A DNA stretch of 64,000 nucleotides from the NCBI RefSeq assembly GCF_050320075.1, contig NZ_CP190018.1. One strand, given 5' to 3'. Shown here one piece after another: positions 1,740-47,124 of this stretch (position 1 is the stretch's first letter; every line of letters begins with the position of its first letter). A model generated the notes under the pieces. The model was not told the origin of the DNA. It did not search any database and saw only the letters and a program-made list of their open reading frames with translations. Made by a program: the position numbers and the translations under genes. The stretch is from Escherichia coli (lineage in GTDB: Bacteria; Pseudomonadota; Gammaproteobacteria; Enterobacterales; Enterobacteriaceae).

Positions 1740-5420
<3,681 letters not shown>

Positions 5421-7229: not shown

Positions 7230-8801
7230 TTACTGAGAGCTCAGATCAACTTTCCAGGGCAACAGATCGCGTACCCGGTTTGCCGGCCAGTCCTGGATAT
7301 GTTCAATGACGTAACGCAGCCACTTTTCTGGCTCCACATTGTTCAGACGGCATGTGCCGATCAGCGAGTACAACACCGCCGCATGTTCACCACCGCTGTC
7401 GGAACCCGCGAACATCCAGTTTTTCCGGCCTACGGCCACTCCCCGTAAGGCGTTCTCTGCGATGTTGTTGTCGATTTCCACCCAGCCATTACTGCAGTAC
7501 ACGTTCAGTGCATCCCACTGTTTCAGCAGGTATGCGAACGCTTTTGCCGTATCTGAGTGACGCGACAGTGTTTTCATCTGTTGCTGTATCCAGTCATACA
7601 GTGACTGCATCAGTGGCGCGGCTCTGGCTTTTCTTGCCGCCAGACGCTGTTCTGCTGAACAGCCCCGGACCTCTGCCTCGATGGCATACAGTTCACCGAT
7701 ACGCTGCAGGGCTTCCGTGGTGATGTAGGTGGGCGCTCTTGCATGCACATCGTGGATTTTTCTCCGGGCATGAGCCATACACGCGGCTTCCGTTATTCTG
7801 CCGGATTCGTATAACGCCCGGTAACCACCGTAAGCATCGGCCTGAAGCACACCGCTGTAACCGGCCAGGTGATTTTGTGGATGGATACCTTTCCGGTCCG
7901 GACTGTACGCGAACCAGACCGCCGGGGGCATCTGTGAACCGGCGTTACGGTCATCACGGACGTAGACCCACAGCCGGGCTGTCCGGGTTTTACCGCTGCC
8001 CGGCTCCTGGACCGGGACGGGGATATCATCAGCATGGACTTTACCGGGCATCAGCACATACTGGCGCAGGACGTCATACAGCGGCTCCAGCAGTTCAGCA
8101 ACAGCACCTGTCCAGCGCCCCAGTGTGGCACGGCTCAGCTCCACTCCCTGACGACGGTATATTTCTGACTGGCGGTATAACGGCAGATGGTCTGCATATT
8201 TCCCGGTGACAACATGGGCCAGAAGCCCCGCTCCGGCATAACTGCGTGCAATGGGTTTTGAAGGTACTGGTGCCTGCACGATATGGTCGCACCGGCAACA
8301 GGCCTGTTTCGGACGTTGTGTTTCGATAACCTTAAAGGCGCTGCTGATAAGCTCCAGTTGCTCTGACACATCACATCCCAGAGAACTGAGTTCACCACCA
8401 CAGGCAGGACAGCATTCCTCTTCCGGCCGGATAACCCGGGTTTCACGGGGAAGTGAGGCCGGTAACGGTTTACGGGCTGAAGACTGGCGCAGGGCGGATG
8501 GCAGTACCGGGTCATATTGCTCACCCAGCGTTTCCGCCATTTCTTCCTGAAGTGCGCTGATTCGCTCCTGTGCTTCCTGTATCTGCCGTTCGGTTTTTGC
8601 ACGAAGTTTTTCTGAGCTTTTACCGAACTGCATACGTTGCAGTTTCGCAACCAGCGCCTTCAGCCGGTTGATTTCGGAAGCATAAGCCGCCACCCGCTGT
8701 GAGAGCAGGCGGTTGTATTCAGCCATCTGGCGGATGGTGTCCTGTTGCGTCTGCAACAGTGCCCGCAGGCGGGCGTTCTCATGAGCAAGTGAGGTGTCCA
8801 T
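7230..8801 (-). CDS. tnpC: IS66-family transposase (Orf3/TnpC)
   Basis: 523 aa; N-terminal coiled-coil/leucine-zipper region, CxxC...C zinc-finger-like motifs and IS66 transposase-like core. Confidence 0.85.
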
Positions 8802-8820
8802 ATCCTCACTTTACAACGGG

Positions 8821-9168
8821 TTATATGCGGATTCCAGCGCGTTCCGTTCGTTTCGGGTGCTTCCAGTTGATACCTTCAAGAAGCATGGATAACTGAGCCG
8901 GAGTAAGGTGCACCTTGCCGTCACGGGTGACTGGCCAGACGAAGCGGCCCCGCTCCAGGCGTTTGGTGAAGAGGCACAGTCCGTCACTGTCAGCCCACAA
9001 CACTTTTATCTGGTCACCCCGGCGTCCGCGGAAGATGAACAGGTGTCCGGAGAACGGGTCATCCTTCAGGACGTTCTGAACTTTTGATGCCAGGCCGTTA
9101 AAGCCATTTCGCATATCGGTGATACCTGCAACCAGCCAGATACGCGAACCTGCAGGGAGAGATATCAT
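8821..9168 (-). CDS. tnpB: IS66 Orf2 (TnpB) accessory protein
   Basis: 115 aa, typical IS66 orf2 sequence (…FIFRGRRGDQIKVLWADSDGLCLFTKRLE…); ATGA overlap with upstream orf. Confidence 0.8.
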   Translation of the reverse strand: MISLPAGSRIWLVAGITDMRNGFNGLASKVQNVLKDDPFSGHLFIFRGRRGDQIKVLWADSDGLCLFTKRLERGRFVWPVTRDGKVHLTPAQLSMLLEGINWKHPKRTERAGIRI

Positions 9169-9845
9169 CAGTGGCTGCTCCCTTTTATTTCGCGGATAAG
9201 TGTCTGTAATAACGCCGGCGTCAGTTTACCTTTAAGCCTGAGAGTTCCGGCCGGCAGAACCAGCTCACAACACAGACTGTCGGACGGTGTATTTATCTGC
9301 TCTGGTTCCTGTGCGGGGGCCGGGATTTTATTATCCGGCTCCGGCGTTAACGTCACGGGAAGCAGTGCCGGCATATTTTTTCCGGAAGGCAGCAGGCCAC
9401 CTTTCCGGTATTGATGGCGCCAGTTGAAGAGCAGGTTATCGTTGATTCCGTTTTCCCGGGCGATCTGCGCCACACAGGCTCCGGGCTGCAGTGACTGCTC
9501 CACTAAGGCGATTTTAAACTCATAAGGGAAGTTGGGCCGCCGGGGACGTTTTTTTACCACGGGGGCTTCGGATATAACGGTGCTTTCAGGACGTACGACT
9601 GGTACCGTGGAAAATTGTCCGTAAAGGCAGGCATCAAGTTCCTGCTCCGACATGCCTGCGGGCAAAGGCCACGAAAGGCCAGCTCTCCGAAAGCGCACGA
9701 ACATACTACAAACTGTTGATTTTGGTACACCCAGGCGACGCCCGGCCACAACCCGGGGTAAATGTTCTTCAAAGTGAAGACGTAAAGCTTCAGTGATCCA
9801 GGTCCGGTGTTTCATACGATAGTGTCCATTAAAAATGATGGACAT
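9168..9845 (-). CDS. tnpA: IS66 Orf1 (TnpA) accessory protein
   Basis: First ORF inside the element, 53 bp from the IS end, same strand as orf2/orf3; true start may be an internal Met. Confidence 0.65.
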   Translation of the reverse strand: MSIIFNGHYRMKHRTWITEALRLHFEEHLPRVVAGRRLGVPKSTVCSMFVRFRRAGLSWPLPAGMSEQELDACLYGQFSTVPVVRPESTVISEAPVVKKRPRRPNFPYEFKIALVEQSLQPGACVAQIARENGINDNLLFNWRHQYRKGGLLPSGKNMPALLPVTLTPEPDNKIPAPAQEPEQINTPSDSLCCELVLPAGTLRLKGKLTPALLQTLIREIKGSSH

Positions 9846-19183: not shown

Positions 19184-22100
19184 ATGGGTAAAGGCAGCAG
19201 TAAGGGGCATACCCCGCGCGAAGCGAAGGACAACCTGAAGTCCACGCAGCTGCTGAGTGTGATCGATGCCATCAGCGAAGGGCCGGTTGAAGGTCCGGTG
19301 GATGGATTAAAAAGCGTGCTGCTGAACAGTACGCCGGTGCTGGACAGTGAGGGGAATACCAATATATCCGGCGTCACGGTGGTGTTCCGGGCCGGTGAGC
19401 AGGAGCAGACTCCGCCGGAGGGATTTGAATCCTCCGGTTCCGAGACGGTGCTGGGTACGGAAGTGAAATATGACACGCCGATCACCCGCACCATCACGTC
19501 GGCAAACATCGACCGTCTGCGCTTTACCTTCGGTGTGCAGGCACTGGTGGAAACCACCTCAAAGGGGGACAGGAATCCATCGGAAGTCCGCCTGCTGGTT
19601 CAGATACAACGTAACGGTGGCTGGGTGACGGAAAAAGACATCACCATTAAGGGTAAAACCACCTCGCAGTATCTGGCCTCAGTGGTGGTGGATAACCTGC
19701 CGCCGCGCCCGTTTAATATCCGGATGCGCAGGATGACGCCGGACAGCACCACAGACCAGCTGCAGAACAAAACGCTCTGGTCGTCATACACCGAAATCAT
19801 CGATGTGAAACAGTGCTACCCGAACACGGCACTGGTCGGCGTGCAGGTGGACTCGGAGCAGTTCGGCAGCCAGCAGGTGAGCCGTAATTATCATCTGCGC
19901 GGGCGTATTCTGCAGGTGCCGTCGAACTATAACCCGCAGACGCGGCAATACAGCGGTATCTGGGACGGGACGTTTAAACCGGCATACAGCAACAACATGG
20001 CCTGGTGTCTGTGGGATATGCTGACCCATCCGCGCTACGGCATGGGGAAGCGTCTCGGTGCGGCGGATGTGGACAAATGGGCGCTGTATGTCATCGGCCA
20101 GAATTGCGACCAGTCGGTGCCGGATGGCTTTGGTGGCACGGAGCCGCGCATCACCTGTAATGCCTGGCTGACCACGCAGCGCAAGGCGTGGGATGTGCTC
20201 AGTGATTTCTGCTCGGCGATGCGCTGTATGCCGGTATGGAACGGGCAGACGCTGACGTTCGTGCAGGACCGGCCATCGGATAAGGTGTGGACCTATAACC
20301 GCAGTAATGTGGTGATGCCGGATGATGGCGCGCCGTTCCGCTACAGCTTCAGCGCCCTGAAGGACCGTCATAATGCCGTTGAGGTGAACTGGATTGACCC
20401 GAATAACGGCTGGGAGACGGCGACAGAGCTTGTGGAGGACACGCAGGCCATTGCCCGTTACGGTCGTAACGTTACGAAGATGGATGCCTTTGGCTGTACC
20501 AGCCGGGGGCAGGCACACCGCGCCGGGCTGTGGCTGATTAAAACAGAACTGCTGGAAACGCAGACCGTGGATTTCAGCGTCGGCGCAGAAGGGCTTCGCC
20601 ATGTACCGGGCGATGTTATTGAAATCTGTGATGATGACTATGCCGGTATCAGCACCGGTGGTCGTGTGCTGGCGGTGAACAGCCAGACCCGGACGCTGAC
20701 GCTCGACCGTGAAATCACGCTGCCATCCTCCGGTACCACGCTGATAAGCCTGGTTGACGGAAGTGGCAATCCGGTCAGCGTGGAGGTTCAGTCCGTCACC
20801 GACGGCGTGAAGGTAAAAGTGAGCCGTGTTCCTGACGGTGTTGCTGAATACAGCGTATGGGGGCTGAAGCTGCCGACGCTGCGCCAGCGACTGTTCCGCT
20901 GCGTGAGTATCCGTGAGAACGACGACGGCACGTATGCCATCACCGCCGTGCAGCATGTGCCGGAAAAAGAGGCCATCGTGGATAACGGGGCGCACTTTGA
21001 CGGCGAACAGAGTGGCACGGTGAATGGTGTCACGCCGCCAGCGGTGCAGCACCTGACCGCAGAAGTCACTGCAGACAGCGGGGAATATCAGGTGCTGGCG
21101 CGCTGGGATACGCCGAAGGTGGTGAAGGGTGTGAGCTTTATGCTTCGCCTGACCGTGGCAGCGGATGACGGCAGTGAGCGGCTGGTCAGCACGGCCCGGA
21201 CGACGGAAACCACATACCGCTTCAGGCAGCTGGCGCTGGGAAGCTACAGGCTGACAGTCCGGGCGGCAAATGCCTGGGGGCAGCAGGGCGATCCTGCATC
21301 GGTATCGTTCCGGATTGCCGCACCGGCAGCGCCGTCGCGGATTGAGCTGACGCCGGGCTATTTTCAGATAACCGCCACGCCCCATCTTGCCGTTTATGAT
21401 CCGACGGTACAGTTTGAGTTCTGGTTCTCGGAAAAGCGGATTGCGGATATCAGGCAGGTTGAAACTACAGCCCGCTATCTTGGCACGGCGCTGTACTGGA
21501 TAGCTGCCAGTATCAATATCAAACCGGGCCATGATTATTATTTTTACATCCGCAGTGTGAACACCGTTGGCAAATCGGCATTTGTGGAGGCTGTTGGCCA
21601 GCCGAGTGATGATGCATCCGGCTATCTGGATTTTTTCAAAGGCGAGATAGGGAAAAGCCATCTGGCTCAGGAGCTGTGGACGCAGATTGATAACGGTCAG
21701 CTTGCGCCTGACCTGGCTGAAATCAGGACGTCCATTACGGATGTCAGCAATGAAATCACGCAGACCGTCAATAAGAAACTGGAAGACCAGAGTGCGGCAA
21801 TTCAGCAGATACAGAAGGTTCAGGTTGATACAAATAATAACCTGAACAGCATGTGGGCTGTGAAGCTGCAGCAGATGCAGGACGGACGCCTTTATATCGC
21901 GGGTATTGGTGCCGGTATTGAGAACACCCCTGACGGCATGCAGAGTCAGGTGCTGCTGGCGGCGGACAGGATTGCGATGGTTAATCCTGCGAATGGCAAC
22001 ACAAAGCCGATGTTTGTTGGTCAGGGCGATCAGATATTCATGAACGAAGTGTTCCTGAAATATCTGACGGCTCCCACCATTACCAGCGGCGGTAATCCTC

Positions 22101-27158: not shown

Positions 27159-27458
27159 ATGAAAATGGATATAACACCTTTCCTTCATGCGCTTTGTGCT
27201 GTGGCTGCGCAGCTACTGATTGGTCTTTTTACCGGGAACTGGGCTTACGGGGCGATAGCCGGTTGTACGTTCTTCATTGCGCGTGAACACACCCAGGCAG
27301 AATATCGCTGGATCGAAATGTTCGGGCATGGCAAGCGAATGAATATGCCGTGGTGGGGCGGTTTTGATCCACGCGCGTGGGATGTGGCAAGCCTGATGGA
27401 TTTTGCTGTGCCGGTGGTGGCGTGTCTGCTGGTCTGGCTGTTGGTTAATCGTGGGTGA
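27159..27458 (+). CDS. small hydrophobic membrane protein (2-3 predicted TM helices), function unknown
   Basis: Track ORF begins with TTG at 27150; ATG at 27159/27165 more plausible; hydrophobic stretches [16 protein letters not shown] and [15 protein letters not shown]. Confidence 0.5.
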
Positions 27459-27608
27459 AAAAAGGTGGGCTGTATATGCAACGGAGGAAGAAACCACGTT
27501 GCTGGAAGCCTGGAAGAAGTATCGGGTGTTGCTGAACCGTGTTAATACAACAACTGCACCGGATATTGAATGGCCAACAGTACCCATTATCGAATAGTGC
27601 ATTACGAA

Positions 27609-27650
27609 CTGCAGGATATTATATGGGATAATATTCTGCAGTTTATTGGG
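27609..27650 (+). terminator. 14-bp-stem hairpin plus T-rich tail ending the fibre-operon transcript
   Basis: ctgcaggatattat-atggg-ataatattctgcag then tttattgg. Confidence 0.4.
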
Positions 27651-27670
27651 GCTGTATTTTAAAAAGGTGT

Positions 27671-29002
27671 TTATTTTGAGTGAATTATCACCTTGTTTTT
27701 TCCGGTTCTTTTGGCTTGATATAACGCTTTGTCGGCATTGACTAACATTTCAGATGGACTGAGATTATTCTCTTTTGAAGCAAAGCAACCAATACTGACA
27801 GTTATTTTCTCAGGTCCATGCGATAATAATTTTTCCGAGCATTGCTCTTCAATGTTTTTTCTGATTCGCTCTGCAATTGATAGCAAGAGTTTTTGAGTAT
27901 TACCTTTAATGATAATACCGAACTCCTCACCGCCTAAGCGCCCTAATATATCCTCTTTCCTGATGGATTTTTTTATTATTCTGGTAACCATTACTATGAC
28001 TTGATCACCCATATGATGCCCCCATTTGTCATTGATGCTTTTGAAACTGTCAATATCTAACATTATTACTGAGAAATCATGGTGTTTTGATATATTCTTC
28101 AATGAGTCAATAAAGTATCTTCTATTGTATGTATTCGTTAGTGGATCATGAATTGCCATATGATTAGCATGATTTAATTTCCTGAAAACATAATACATGA
28201 GTGTTGAAATGATATAAATCATTGATATCAATTCAAGAAATTTTGTCATGTACCATGCAGGATGGGATTTATCAATAAAATACAATAAAATTAGATTATT
28301 GCATACTGACACTATACTAATAAGTATTATACACAACCATATTTTTGAGTAATTACGTATGCTGATGCATGAGCTGATAAGTAATACAAGCCAAAATACT
28401 GATATTATTTTGGTGTACACGATATTCCACGTCGACAAATGACGATTCAGCGAGTATTGTATAATATTAAGACTATATTTTATATGGTCACTGCTTAGAT
28501 TTTTTGCTACAAACGGAGTAATAAAAAGAATTAATATTGACAAAACAACAATTATTATGTTTCTTTTATCTTCTAAAATACTTTTATTTTTAACATTGGT
28601 GGAATAAACAGCCAGAAAGATTATAGATATAAAGCTGAACTGACGGAATAGATAATATATTGCGATATCATTTGATTTCTGATAGATTGTAGATAAATCG
28701 TTACCTAACGGAGATAAAGAAATAATAGCCACTTCTAATAAATAATACGTGTTGCTCAAAAACGCGAATGAAAGAATTAAGAGATAACTTTGTCTCTGAT
28801 TAGAAACATAGTAAAGCAATAGAAAAATAAAAATCATCAGGTTTATGAAAAAAAGCCCAATAATGAAAACACTATAACTTATTTGTGTTGTTTGTGTTAT
28901 GTATATTCCATTATTTTCATGCAGTAACAAAAATATAATAGAGATGCATGAAAATAAAAAGATGAAGATTTTTATTTTTATAGGTACCTGGTTGATAATC
29001 AT
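27671..29002 (-). CDS. membrane-anchored GGDEF-domain diguanylate cyclase (N-terminal polytopic membrane domain of unrecognised type)
   Basis: 443 aa; SD AGGTG 6 nt upstream; C-terminal GGDEF motifs incl. RKEDILGRLGGEEF (I-site RxxD + GGEEF); about 8 hydrophobic helices N-terminal; extremely AT-rich. Confidence 0.85.
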   Translation of the reverse strand: MIINQVPIKIKIFIFLFSCISIIFLLLHENNGIYITQTTQISYSVFIIGLFFINLMIFIFLLLYYVSNQRQSYLLILSFAFLSNTYYLLEVAIISLSPLGNDLSTIYQKSNDIAIYYLFRQFSFISIIFLAVYSTNVKNKSILEDKRNIIIVVLSILILFITPFVAKNLSSDHIKYSLNIIQYSLNRHLSTWNIVYTKIISVFWLVLLISSCISIRNYSKIWLCIILISIVSVCNNLILLYFIDKSHPAWYMTKFLELISMIYIISTLMYYVFRKLNHANHMAIHDPLTNTYNRRYFIDSLKNISKHHDFSVIMLDIDSFKSINDKWGHHMGDQVIVMVTRIIKKSIRKEDILGRLGGEEFGIIIKGNTQKLLLSIAERIRKNIEEQCSEKLLSHGPEKITVSIGCFASKENNLSPSEMLVNADKALYQAKRTGKNKVIIHSK

Positions 29003-29594
29003 GTACGCACCTGAGAATGATATATATATAATATGTATCGCTACAAATAACGATAATTTCTTACTGGTGATAGTATACTATTATTCTGGTTAATCGCTGT
29101 CAAATTGATGATTTTGGTTAGTATTGCAATAGCGAAGGGTTTGATCCGGTAAGACTGGCTAGGCAAGGCTATACCAAAAAATCAGTGTAGGTTCAGAAAA
29201 CGATGCACCATACAATCATCAATAATTTCAAATTGTCCATTGTGCATAAATCATAAAGAAAACCGCAGCACGTCGTATGCAAGAACGTGCTGCGGTTGGC
29301 TGGTGAGCTTTCGATAGTGCGAGTATTGAATGATTTCCAGACGTTACCGATTTTATATAACTGCAGTGGAATTATTCAACACACAGGCAAAACGGAATAA
29401 GCTGAGAAAAAAGCGTGCTTTCCCAATCTGGGGCAAATCACGTCTGAATGACACCTGAAAACAGGTGGTAGCCTCAAGAAGGCTTGGAATATTCTTCTTT
29501 AATGTTATGTAATTCATTGATTTTTCTTGTACGATTTTAAGACATTTATTCCAAGAAAAATTTTTAACTCTTTGATTTTTCGACTCTGTATCAT

Positions 29595-29656
29595 CGGTCT
29601 CGAAAACCGGAGTAGGGGCAACTCTACCGGGGGTTCAAATCCCCCTCTCTCCGCCA
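29595..29656 (+). other. 3' 61 nt of tRNA-Ser (serU-type, anticodon CGA region to CCA): prophage attR core copy, not a complete tRNA
   Basis: ggtctcgaaaaccggagtaggggcaactctaccgggggttcaaatccccctctctccgcca matches the 3' two-thirds of serU as recalled; the 5' acceptor/D-arm is absent upstream. Confidence 0.85.
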
Positions 29657-30323
29657 CCTTATCAATGACTTATCTCCCGACTTCCCGCCTTGCTTTTCCT
29701 AAACAGAACAATCGTAGAATATTCTTGAAGGGTTAGATCGTCACTGTTTTCTGTTCGATACTGTGACATTCAGCACTTGATTCGCTATGGATCTGACAGG
29801 AAGGTTTCGAGCGAAAATCTGCAGTTATTCAGTCGTTTTCTTATCGGTCACCATTATTCTTTTAGACATTGATCCTACGAAGCTGCCGCAAAGTTGGTGG
29901 TGGGAACTGAAGTTGCGTAGAGAAGGAGTCAATAATTGAGCCAAAAAAGGAACGCGGCCGTCAGATTAAAGCCGCGGGACAAAGTCCATAATTTCCAAGA
30001 GTTGTTGAATTTCCCAACTTTTTTGAAAGCCTTTGTATCATACTAACAAGTAAAAAAGGTTTAAATACCAAAATTAACCTATATTTCTGGTTAGCTTTAC
30101 CATGACAGATGACTTGCTCCTGGAGACATTGGCGCAGCCAGTCTGTATTGGTGAGTTGTGTATTTATTGTTCGCCGTTTTCTCAGTTTTTTCTACAGACA
30201 TAATAAAAAAGACACGTCTCAAGCATGAGCGTGTCTGAGTTTGTCTTATTTATTTGTCTTGGTAAATTATTGTCGTTACTACTAGGCACTGTTCTGTTAA
30301 ATAATTGAATCAGCGAAAAAAAA

Positions 30324-30974
30324 TCAATGAGACATCATTTCCTCGACCACTTCTTCGCTACTCAACTGATAGGGATAATACGTTGGCCAGTTTTCCATTT
30401 CATTTAATAAAGATTGCTGTGAATCATTACCCATAAAAATGTGAAAATGAGATGATTTTCGTGGTGCAATTATATGATCGCTAAATTGAATATATTTAGG
30501 GGCTTTGCTTTCAGGATCTTTACATTCGAATAAATAACGAACGCCTTTCTTACCTGATTTATAGGTGAGTATTTTGTATCCATCGTAATCATATTTACAG
30601 GATGTTGTTTCATTATTTCTATGGAATTCAACAATGCCGTCCTCAATGCCAATCATCTCGATATCTGTCACATAACCTTTGCGATAATAATCTTTAATTT
30701 CAGCAAATGTTTTGGTTTTATCTGCATCCGCTTTCTTCTGAAAGACGGGGTCAAGTTTGCCACTTTGCAGTAAAGGATAAACGGATTGCCATACTCCATC
30801 CCAGTCACTTAGCGTTCGGTTTTGTACATTGGCATCATCAAAAACACCATTAGCAGCTTTTTGTTCGACCTCTGTTAAGGGTTTGCCGTGTGAGTGATGA
30901 CCATGCGAAAAGGCAGGAGCGCTAACAATAAAGACACCTAAAGCAACAGCCAGTTTATGAAGACGAATCGCCAA
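30324..30974 (-). CDS. zinT: zinc/cadmium-binding periplasmic protein ZinT
   Basis: 216 aa, signal peptide plus His-rich HGHHSHG motif. Confidence 0.95.
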
Positions 30975-38298: not shown

Positions 38299-38845
38299 TA
38301 TGTATTCCCTTGTGATTATAATCTTCATGAATATATCAATAAGTGCCGTTATCCAAAAAAAAGCACATTTGGATACTATTCTATGAAGTTCATTTTATTT
38401 TAAAGATTACATGTAACAAATATATTTAAAAGATTTCAAAATGTTTCTAATCTATTTAATATAATTCAGAATTATGAATTCTAAATATAAATATTCATGA
38501 AAATTATAAATGTATATCAATATGTTATGAGTTGAGCGGAAACATAGGGGGTATCAATGATTGTTGCGCCAAACGGCTGGTGTGATCACGCGCACATTAA
38601 TGAAGGCATAAAAAAAGCCGGCATCATGCCGGCCCAAAAAAAATAAACAAGACGATAAAAGGCTAATAACGGAAGCATCATGACACAGAATAATAAAAAG
38701 GTATAATTGTAATCAGTGCTAATATATTGATTGAATGAATTAATAAAGCCGATATCAAAGATAAATAAAATCGCTCAAAACGATTTTTCCTGTATTCACT
38801 GCCGTTGCGCAAAAATTATCTATTTGTTCAAAAAATGATTGAGTC

Positions 38846-41900: not shown

Positions 41901-42809
41901 TGCGTCCTGAATAACTGGCGCAACTACGGGTTTTGCCGGGAAGAGATATTTTCCCAACGTGACCAGTACCACCGCGAAGACAATTACGCCGAGCGCCAGC
42001 CATTCAATCTTCGACAGCGTCTCTCCGCCCAGTCCCGTACCCAGCAAGACCGCGACCACCGGGTTAACGTAGGCGTAGCTGGTGGCGAGAGCCGGACTGA
42101 CGTTGCGGATTAAATACATATAAGCGTTAATGGCGATAATCGAACCAAACAGCGCCAGATAGCCGACCGCAAGGAAGCCTGAAAGGGAAGGGAGCGCCGT
42201 CAGTTTTTCACCTGCAATCATCGACGCGATCATTAACACCACGCCTGCTGCCAGCATCTCAATCGCACCCGCCATCATCCCTACAGGTAATGTAATGCGC
42301 GAGCCATAAACCGAGCCAAACGCCCAGCTAATCGAGCCGATTAAAATCAGAATCGCGCCCCACGGATTGCCGCTTAAATTTCCACCGCTATTGAGCATGA
42401 TGATTCCGGCAAGCCCAATGGCGATACCCACCCATTCCAGTTTGCGCGTTTTAATGCCAAATAGGCGGCTGAAGCACAAGGTAAAGAGAGGCACGGTTGC
42501 AACCACTACGGCGGCGATGCCGGAAGGAACATTTTGATGTTCGGCAACCGTTACCATGCCATTACCGACAGCCAGCAATAACAGGCCAATCAGCGCGGCA
42601 TTGAGCAGCGGACGTAGCGGGGGGAGTTTGTGTCCGCGCAGTAGCAAAAATGCCAGCAATAAAATACCGGCTGCCAGGAATCGCACGCCCGCCATCATTA
42701 ACGGCGGCCAGCTTTCCACGCCAATCCGAATGACAAAATAGGTTGAGCCCCAAATGATATACAACGCAAACAACGCGCCAAAAAGCGGTAACAACTGGCG
42801 GAAACGCAT
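41889..42809 (-). CDS. yedA: EamA/DMT-family transporter YedA
   Basis: 306 aa, about 10 TM helices. Confidence 0.9.
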   Translation of the reverse strand: MRFRQLLPLFGALFALYIIWGSTYFVIRIGVESWPPLMMAGVRFLAAGILLLAFLLLRGHKLPPLRPLLNAALIGLLLLAVGNGMVTVAEHQNVPSGIAAVVVATVPLFTLCFSRLFGIKTRKLEWVGIAIGLAGIIMLNSGGNLSGNPWGAILILIGSISWAFGSVYGSRITLPVGMMAGAIEMLAAGVVLMIASMIAGEKLTALPSLSGFLAVGYLALFGSIIAINAYMYLIRNVSPALATSYAYVNPVVAVLLGTGLGGETLSKIEWLALGVIVFAVVLVTLGKYLFPAKPVVAPVIQDASSE

Positions 42810-42981
42810 AATCCCTCACGGTGGAAATAAAAAGGTGGTTCATAGTAAACGTGAAAATCATTCTGCTGGCGAGAGATATAATTGCACTTGATTGTTAAAA
42901 AAATGTTGACCTGTGAAGCAAGTATCAGAGCTGCCGTTTTTGCTTCATACTTACACCCTTCAACAATAAAAATGAGAGGGA

Positions 42982-43899
42982 ATGCTTTTGGCCGGGAGTA
43001 GTTTACTGACGTTGCTCGATGATATCGCCACACTGCTGGACGATATTTCCGTGATGGGCAAACTGGCGGCGAAGAAAACCGCCGGTGTATTAGGGGATGA
43101 CTTATCGCTCAATGCGCAACAAGTTTCAGGCGTGCGCGCCAACCGGGAACTTCCCGTGGTCTGGGGCGTGGCGAAAGGATCGCTGATCAATAAAGTGATT
43201 CTGGTGCCGCTGGCGCTGATCATCAGTGCGTTTATCCCGTGGGCGATTACGCCACTGTTGATGATTGGCGGCGCGTTTCTCTGCTTTGAAGGGGTAGAGA
43301 AAGTGCTGCATATGCTGGAGGCGCGTAAACATAAAGAAGATCCGGCGCAGAGTCAGCAGCGTCTGGAGAAGTTGGCGGCGCAGGATCCGCTGAAGTTTGA
43401 AAAAGACAAAATAAAAGGGGCGATTCGTACCGATTTTATATTGTCTGCGGAAATCGTCGCCATCACGCTGGGGATTGTGGCAGAAGCGCCGTTGCTTAAT
43501 CAGGTGCTGGTGCTTTCAGGCATCGCGCTGGTAGTGACCGTGGGCGTCTACGGTCTGGTAGGGGTTATCGTTAAGATTGATGACCTGGGGTATTGGCTGG
43601 CGGAAAAATCCAGCGCGCTGATGCAGGCATTAGGTAAAGGGTTATTGATCATTGCGCCCTGGTTGATGAAGGCGTTATCGATTGTCGGCACGCTGGCGAT
43701 GTTCCTCGTCGGCGGCGGGATTGTGGTACATGGTATTGCGCCGCTGCATCACGCCATTGAACATTTCGCCGGGCAGCAAAGTGCAGTGGTGGCGATGATA
43801 TTACCGACTGTTTTAAATCTGATTCTTGGTTTTATCATCGGTGGCATCGTGGTGCTGGGAGTGAAAGCAGTAGCGAAAATGCGCGGTCAGGCACATTAA
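42982..43899 (+). CDS. yedI: DUF808 inner membrane protein YedI
   Basis: 305 aa. Confidence 0.9.
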
Positions 43900-47037: not shown

Positions 47038-47124
47038 AACACATCAGATTTCCTGGTGTAACGAATTTTTTAAGTGCTTCTTGCTTAAGCAAGTTTCATC
47101 CCGACCCCCTCAGGGTCGGGATTT
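47038..47124 (+). ncRNA. dsrA: DsrA small regulatory RNA
   Basis: aacacatcagatttcctggtgtaacgaattttttaagtgcttcttgcttaagcaagtttcatcccgaccccctcagggtcgggattt matches DsrA as recalled, incl. terminal hairpin plus U-run. Confidence 0.9.

Follow-up and report, generated by a model that had tools for sequence, protein, structure and literature searches.

What is part of a serine tRNA gene doing between the tail-fibre end of a prophage and the chromosomal gene zinT? The DNA analysed here, a 64-kb stretch of an Escherichia coli chromosome (64,000 nucleotides, referred to below as the window, with positions counted from its first letter), carries at 29003-29656 an AT-rich region followed by the 3′ portion of a tRNA-Ser gene. 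A preliminary description, made from the letters alone, took this fragment for the right attachment site (attR) of a phage that integrates into the 3′ end of serU. In the following, we present evidence that makes us highly confident that 29359-29656, together with its right flank, is the attR (P arm, core and B′) of a lambdoid prophage of about 47.9 kb inserted by a tyrosine integrase. This reading draws on three kinds of direct observation: sequence identities, the comparison with empty sites and the architecture of motifs. The features of the locus are collected in Table 1.

Table 1. Features of the serU prophage right end and its surroundings (window coordinates).
Feature	Position	Strand	Basis or remark
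Prophage late region: end of lysis genes, terminase, head, tail and tail-fibre genes	1-27476	+	annotation of YZLc1-3 (99.98% identical)
dgcX cassette: last ~100 bp of tail-fibre-assembly gene, dgcX, upstream region, conserved element	27477-29358	-	
dgcX, intact 443-aa diguanylate cyclase	27671-29002	-	ORF; MASE4 membrane sensor and GGDEF
dgcX 5′ untranslated and promoter region	29003-29289	-	shared with dgcX loci at other chromosomal sites
Lambdoid boundary element, ~100 bp	29253-29355	.	conserved; hairpin with 12-bp stem at 29261-29297
P arm of phage attachment site	29359-29594	+	common to 744 genomes at serU
att core, displaced original serU 3′ end	29595-29656	+	62-nt 3′ fragment of tRNA-Ser(CGA), identical at attL
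B′ chromosomal flank, directly after serU in empty-site genomes	29657-30103	+	present in 5421/5426 genomes
220-bp alternative allele with zinT terminator hairpin (30210-30236) and U-run (minus strand)	30104-30323	-	
zinT, first chromosomal gene right of the prophage	30324-30974	-	ORF and annotation

The 3′ end of serU is duplicated at the two ends of a prophage

The core sequence, CGGTCTCGAAAACCGGAGTAGGGGCAACTCTACCGGGGGTTCAAATCCCCCTCTCTCCGCCA, is an exact copy of nucleotides 29 to 90 of the 90-nt serU gene for tRNA-Ser(CGA) and thus begins at the second base of the anticodon stem and includes the terminal CCA. The serU origin proposed in the preliminary description is therefore confirmed, and only the length needs correction, from 61 to 62 nt, the number that its own coordinates span. 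The 62-nt sequence is present in a single copy in the window, where no match was expected by chance and no shuffle gave one. No second or partial copy of the kind left by tandem elements was found in the window, even with a 25-mer and three mismatches. A complete tRNA-Ser gene at 29.5-29.7 kb, the finding named beforehand as incompatible with an attachment site, was ruled out with both ARAGORN and Rfam. ARAGORN detected no complete tRNA anywhere in the 64-kb window and, as a positive control, picked up the intact serU at the other prophage end of a near-identical genome. A search of the whole window at Rfam gathering thresholds likewise returned no tRNA, the only genes reported being DsrA and rseX.

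The left attachment site (attL) lies outside the window and was read from near-identical complete genomes, not from the source genome itself. One of these, E. coli YZLc1-3 (NZ_CP123240.1), shares 99.977% identity with the window across 34.7 kb. Its intact serU, identical to our partial copy over the shared part, lies at record positions 2107955-2108044, which corresponds to 18.2 kb left of the window start. A tyrosine integrase gene is found 27 bp beyond the intact tRNA gene on the opposite strand, in the company of a DUF4224 gene, and the left prophage end abuts serU, with mtfA and asnT beyond it, in the K-12 order. Alignment of the two prophage ends showed that exactly 62 nt are identical (62/62) and that the flanks are unrelated on both sides. 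The repeat expected at the other end of the prophage was thus recovered, as were the intact serU and the integrase, although at a somewhat shorter distance than the 20-25 kb that had been predicted.

The integrase gene encodes a 341-aa protein with Pfam Phage_integrase and SAM-like N-terminal domains. It should be noted that PGAP flags int as frameshifted in YZLc1-3, together with an exonuclease gene; the 341-aa ORF is nevertheless uninterrupted, and copies annotated as intact in other records share 99.4-99.7% identity with it. The enzyme is not lambda Int but belongs to a different clade, its nearest named relative being the Int of Salmonella phage ST64B (59%). Two 'phage' records with the same integrase, ON470580 and ON470583, were rejected as candidates for a free phage; ON470583, the only one of the two examined, is a prophage prediction that includes chromosomal mtfA and asnT.

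These comparisons identify the fragment at 29595-29656 as the attR copy left by a prophage that used the 3′ end of serU as its integration site. The prophage is lambdoid and about 47.9 kb long; its attL (B-O-P′) adjoins int, and its attR (P-O-B′) extends from 29359-29656 onward. In this reading, a tyrosine integrase recombined the phage with the last 62 nt of serU. Since the phage attP brought its own copy of these 62 nt, an intact serU was rebuilt at attL beside int, and the original 3′ end was displaced to the far side of the prophage, where it persists as a non-functional stub. The 592 bp to the left of the stub are phage DNA, consisting of the 5′ region of dgcX (which encodes a c-di-GMP synthase and is read leftward), a hairpin element and the P arm.

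The P arm shares its repeats with the arm beside the integrase at attL

If the stub is the attR of this particular prophage, the sequence to its left should carry sites for the integrase encoded at the other end. The P arm is shared only with serU prophages. It contains two arm-type repeats, CTTGGAATA, at 29483-29492 (plus strand) and, inverted, at 29546-29555 (minus strand), which are putative Int sites. The P′ arm at attL has three tandem copies, ACTTGGAATT-ACTTGGAATA-TTTTCTTGGAATA, that overlap the 3′ end of int. The motif TTGGAATA occurs only four times in the whole 64-kb window, counting both strands. Two matches to the IHF-like sequence WATCAANNNNTTR, both on the minus strand, were seen at 29510-29522 and 29565-29577, within a 17-nt direct repeat. 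Candidate arm-type repeats of the TTGGAATA type are thus present in both arms, twice in P and three times in P′, with two predicted IHF sites in P. As its repeats recur in P′, the P arm of the window can be tied to the integrase at attL. Judging from these motifs, Int and IHF would be expected to bind at the P-arm sites.

This arrangement is reminiscent of lambda, where the arms contain P1 and P2 and P′1-3, respectively; the serU prophage likewise has two repeats in P and three in P′, and its P′ repeats overlap the 3′ end of int in a lambda-like manner. The resemblance to lambda attR (P-O-B′) extends to the location of the integrase beside attL, the duplication of the core at both ends and the IHF-like sites in the P arm. 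The two systems differ in their cores, 62 nt of a tRNA gene in the serU prophage compared to 15 bp in lambda, and in the arm motif, which is TTGGAATA and not that of lambda. No nucleotide similarity between this region of the window and lambda attP or sib was detected.

The same data bear on the idea that the stub is a relic of an older serU element, since deleted after tandem or successive integration and unrelated to the present lambdoid prophage. Such a history could be imagined, since serU is used by several elements, both prophages and integrative elements, the 592 bp preceding the stub are a mosaic and PGAP annotates a 72-bp 'capsid protein' pseudogene at 29284-29355. We consider it very improbable, however: the window has a single core copy, the P repeats match the P′ arm beside the present integrase, the order tail fibre, P arm, core is the same in the dgcX-less prophage of strain EC958, and the 'capsid' call sits on a hairpin element found at many lambdoid phage ends.

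serU is a frequently occupied site in E. coli

To place this prophage in a wider context, we used a 451-bp K-12 attB probe on 5426 complete E. coli genomes, counting a site as uninterrupted when at least 80% of the query was covered. The serU site was uninterrupted in 3856/5426 genomes, leaving about 1570 (~29%) in which it was interrupted. Most interrupted sites are split at the core, with a left piece that ends at CCA, a right piece that starts at tRNA position 29 and an overlap of 62 nt; the breaks, at attB query positions 171/172 and 232, coincide with the limits of the 62-nt core. In K-12, mtfA, serU and the flank are contiguous, as expected of an empty site. The preliminary description had named the cryptic prophage CP4-44 as the occupant of serU in K-12; this was a mistake, as CP4-44 is annotated at 2066020-2078748, 22.5 kb from serU (2043468-2043557), and the K-12 serU site is empty. 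Its portrayal of serU as an integration hotspot with different occupants was well founded: besides the ~1570 interrupted sites, the P-arm/core/B′ junction of the window recurs in 744 genomes, including strains 042 and EC958, and a different P arm is present at serU in O157 strains and others. In the inner 50 bp of the P arm, the similarity of the O157-type occupants to the window is only 90%.

Several prophages at serU have been described. The right end of phage SerU-LTIIb (KU052038.1, from E. coli strain 41) is organized as here, with side-tail-fibre genes followed by a 62-nt pseudo tRNA-Ser and the chromosome, and is 95% identical to window positions 29472-29940; this phage differs by the presence of the LT-IIb enterotoxin near the lysis genes and the lack of dgcX. 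serU is also listed as a prophage site in strain SE11 (PP_SE11-6) and in STEC O121:H19. PP_SE11-6 and the serU prophages of STEC O121:H19, O145:H28 and EC958 (ST131) have the same integration gene as the prophage studied here. The P arm, core and flank of the EC958 prophage are 96-97% identical to the window, and a 77-nt duplication was reported for SE11, compared to 62 nt here. dgcX was reported in none of the SE11, O121:H19, O145:H28 and EC958 serU prophages, whereas it is present in that of the window.

The chromosomal flank varies independently of the prophage

The segment 29595-30103 is 96.5% identical to K-12 2043529-2043021, which runs from the middle of serU into the downstream spacer. 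The gap between the stub and zinT measures 667 bp and lacks yodB, in agreement with the ~660 bp and the absence of yodB noted earlier, and we could confirm that yodB lies between zinT and serU in K-12 (zinT-yodB-serU-mtfA). The only departure from the K-12 arrangement on this side is located between the zinT stop codon and 30103, where the 220-bp alternative allele replaces 995 bp of K-12 sequence that holds yodB, and the replacement begins exactly at the zinT stop codon. As for other chromosomal features of the window, two sRNA genes were scored at the Rfam gathering level, DsrA at 47038-47124 (plus strand) and rseX at 38610-38699 (minus strand).

Could the prophage have caused the loss of yodB, through an imprecise event such as aberrant excision or integration? 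yodB is 570 bp from serU in K-12 and absent here, and phages with captured serU-flanking DNA exist (see below). Chromosomal DNA is intact over the first 447 bp beyond the core, however, and the replacement, in addition to starting precisely at the zinT stop codon, brings a zinT terminator with it. Furthermore, the yodB-less allele was found in 2281/5426 complete genomes (42%), including Nissle-type and O104:H4 strains; with at most ~1570 interrupted sites, at least ~700 yodB-less genomes must have an empty serU. Conversely, the same dgcX-serU prophage junction is also found in yodB-positive strains (two of the genomes matching the window), and yodB is present on the chromosomal side of the prophage in KU052038. 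A prophage-induced loss of yodB is accordingly hard to credit, and we rate its likelihood as very low. Since the yodB-less allele is commoner than interrupted serU and the junction also occurs with yodB, the allele is independent of the prophage, and the 'rearranged flank' that had been associated with occupancy of this locus has to be dissociated from it.

The AT-rich stretch is a mosaic that includes the upstream region of dgcX

The 592 bp between dgcX and the stub (29003-29594) have a GC content of 36.5%, compared to 50.8% for the whole window, and contain no ORF longer than 54 aa. The preliminary description was accurate as regards AT-richness and lack of coding capacity, but this DNA is neither unrelated nor featureless: it is a mosaic of identifiable phage modules, namely the dgcX upstream region, a conserved hairpin element and the P arm.

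According to Richter et al. (2014, PMC4287979), dgcX is the most strongly expressed diguanylate cyclase gene of E. coli and is always located beside lambdoid prophage DNA. The dgcX prophages published so far occupy attB-lambda (ybhC/ybhB), the Rac site (ydaW-uspF) and argW-dsdC (PMC4287979; Cimdins-Ahne et al. 2023, PMC10459773). The DgcX protein of the window, with Pfam MASE4 (1.8e-35) and GGDEF (3.2e-44) domains, is identical to that of HUSEC2011 (O104:H4) at 436/443 positions, and its gene likewise follows the tail-fibre-assembly gene. At the DNA level, the ~1.9-kb cassette, which has a GC content of 32%, is 99.0% identical to the right end of the HUSEC2011 lambda-attB prophage. The dgcX prophages of EAEC/STEC O104:H4, ETEC, SE11 and Fec101 thus share the same 1.9-kb cassette (99% DNA and 98% protein identity) and have it in the same place at their right ends, immediately behind the tail-fibre-assembly gene; the difference is that the carrier is located at serU in the present case. 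This arrangement is found in only about 29-36 of the 766 dgcX-positive complete genomes.

Upstream of dgcX, a sigma-70-like match (TTGACA-17-TAGTAT at 29103-29075) constitutes a predicted promoter by its agreement with the consensus, and dgcX may well be expressed in the source strain. The gene is intact in the window (443 aa) and annotated as frameshifted in YZLc1-3 (41943-43273 of the locus record). A sub-threshold match to IS009 (70 bits vs. a threshold of 117) was also seen at 27456-27554 (plus strand), over the remnant of the tail-fibre-assembly gene.

Compared to the dgcX-less serU prophage of EC958, positions 27444-29289 are extra DNA. The homology to the HUSEC2011 cassette and that to the EC958 backbone overlap at 29290-29358, inside the conserved element. 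This overlap is the likely right-hand crossover joining the dgcX cassette to the serU-type backbone, and we propose that the cassette would have recombined onto the serU phage within the hairpin element.

A conserved hairpin element lies at the likely recombination joint

The hairpin of the element (29261-29297) combines the 12-bp stem with an invariant 13-nt loop, TCGTATGCAAGAA, and is followed by a U-run on the minus strand; its folding energy is -24.8 kcal/mol. A terminator scan of 28900-30400 gave nothing, its loop limit being 8 nt, and both this hairpin and that of zinT were found by direct folding. About 4000 E. coli genomes contain the element, and it recurs in HK97, phi80, phiP27 and many Stx phages; its place is the boundary between the tail-fibre genes and the b region. 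In an alignment of six sequences, two stem pairs show compensatory changes, and 94% of the cells in the stem are paired, compared to 17-49% when the 3′ partners are slid.

Three candidate identities for the element were rejected. The Rfam model of the sRNA CssrB (RF02799) scored 44.1 bits against a threshold of 76, the alignment covering the 3′ hairpin and a few 5′ bases only, with about 100 model positions absent. A lambda-type sib/tI retroregulator was also dismissed, as neither sib nor the P arm of lambda shows homology to it; HK97 has an annotated sib (21042-21091) that is distinct from the element (20936-21039) and directly adjoins it, and in phi80 the element is 1.7 kb from attP. Lastly, the 72-bp pseudogene annotated by PGAP does not qualify as a satellite remnant because it coincides with the boundary element of many prophage ends, and the 'capsid' or 'nucleocapsid protein' call is most likely spurious.

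Phages with lambda Int carry a probable fossil of a serU attR

An observation of a different kind came from phages ev099 (NC_049953.1), mEp332 and PhiR70_1, which contain window positions 29400-29934 at 98-99% identity in their b regions (4282-4816 in ev099 and 4283-4817 in mEp332). The phage-borne unit comprises the P arm, including its two arm sites, as well as the 62-nt core and 278 bp of chromosomal B′. Chromosomal homology ends at 29934, and an AraC-family regulator gene and IS remnants come next. In all, 94 complete E. coli genomes contain the unit. The copy in ev099 was rejected as a true serU attP: this phage has the int/xis/attP of lambda (96.8% identity), and what follows the core on its right is chromosomal sequence, unlike the P′ arm of attL. 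The simplest reading is that host DNA was captured by aberrant excision of a serU-integrated ancestor, whose integration module would later have changed.

The existence of this unit raises the question of whether the stub and flanks in the window (29400-29934) could similarly be a passenger, carried as a fossil att by a phage integrated elsewhere. Although phages with lambda Int do carry the segment, the homology to K-12 in the window extends beyond 29934, up to 30103, and is found again from zinT through msrQP and hiuH, in the K-12 order. On its left side, the prophage borders on mtfA-serU, again as in K-12, and the integrase at attL is not lambda Int, with P′ repeats that match the P arm of the window. 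These data leave the passenger explanation with next to no plausibility, and point to a genuine attR of a prophage inserted at serU.

The prophage is probably defective

The annotation of YZLc1-3 gives the content of the prophage as dicB/ydfABCD, the Q antiterminator, lysis, terminase and portal genes, a lambda-like tail, J, lom and tail fibres. ISCro1, an element of the IS66 family (tnpA, tnpB and transposase), occupies positions ~7230-9845, between the head-decoration and major-capsid genes. Because of its insertion in the head-gene region, the prophage is probably defective for particle formation, and its attR may no longer be in use. The prophage may still be able to excise today.

A related copy of the serU prophage in E. 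coli MLI106K3 (NZ_CP117020.1) has an element of ~11 kb inside its major capsid gene (record 1106513-1117458), nearly the same place as that of ISCro1 in the window. This element encodes its own integrase, primase, Icd-like protein, SSB, major capsid, head-decoration and small terminase proteins and resembles a capsid-forming satellite.

Discussion

The locus is the ordinary attR of a lambdoid prophage integrated at serU; comparable prophages are on record for KU052038, SE11 and the STEC strains. As such, it carries little weight as a discovery, its use being in the annotation of the prophage boundary, where a 'non-coding' gap of ~590 bp is resolved into named parts. What is mildly new is that serU is a fourth reported location for dgcX prophages, that a conserved hairpin element lies at the recombination joint and that phages carry a fossil serU attR with host DNA.

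A tentative idea, which we hold to be possible but on balance doubtful, concerns the conserved element. The element might be a functional RNA or terminator and, at the same time, a shared crossover point by which cargo such as dgcX moves between phages with different integration modules. The fossil serU attR in phages with lambda Int would then represent a complementary route, in which aberrant excision loads attR-adjacent DNA into the b region.

For prophage annotation in complete E. coli genomes, the census provides the proportions of strains with an interrupted serU (~29%), without yodB (42%) and with dgcX (14%). Globally, our data document serU as a home for prophages that carry dgcX, the highly expressed c-di-GMP synthase gene of the 2011 O104:H4 outbreak strain, and clearly illustrate the exchange of a cassette at a boundary sequence that is conserved among phages.
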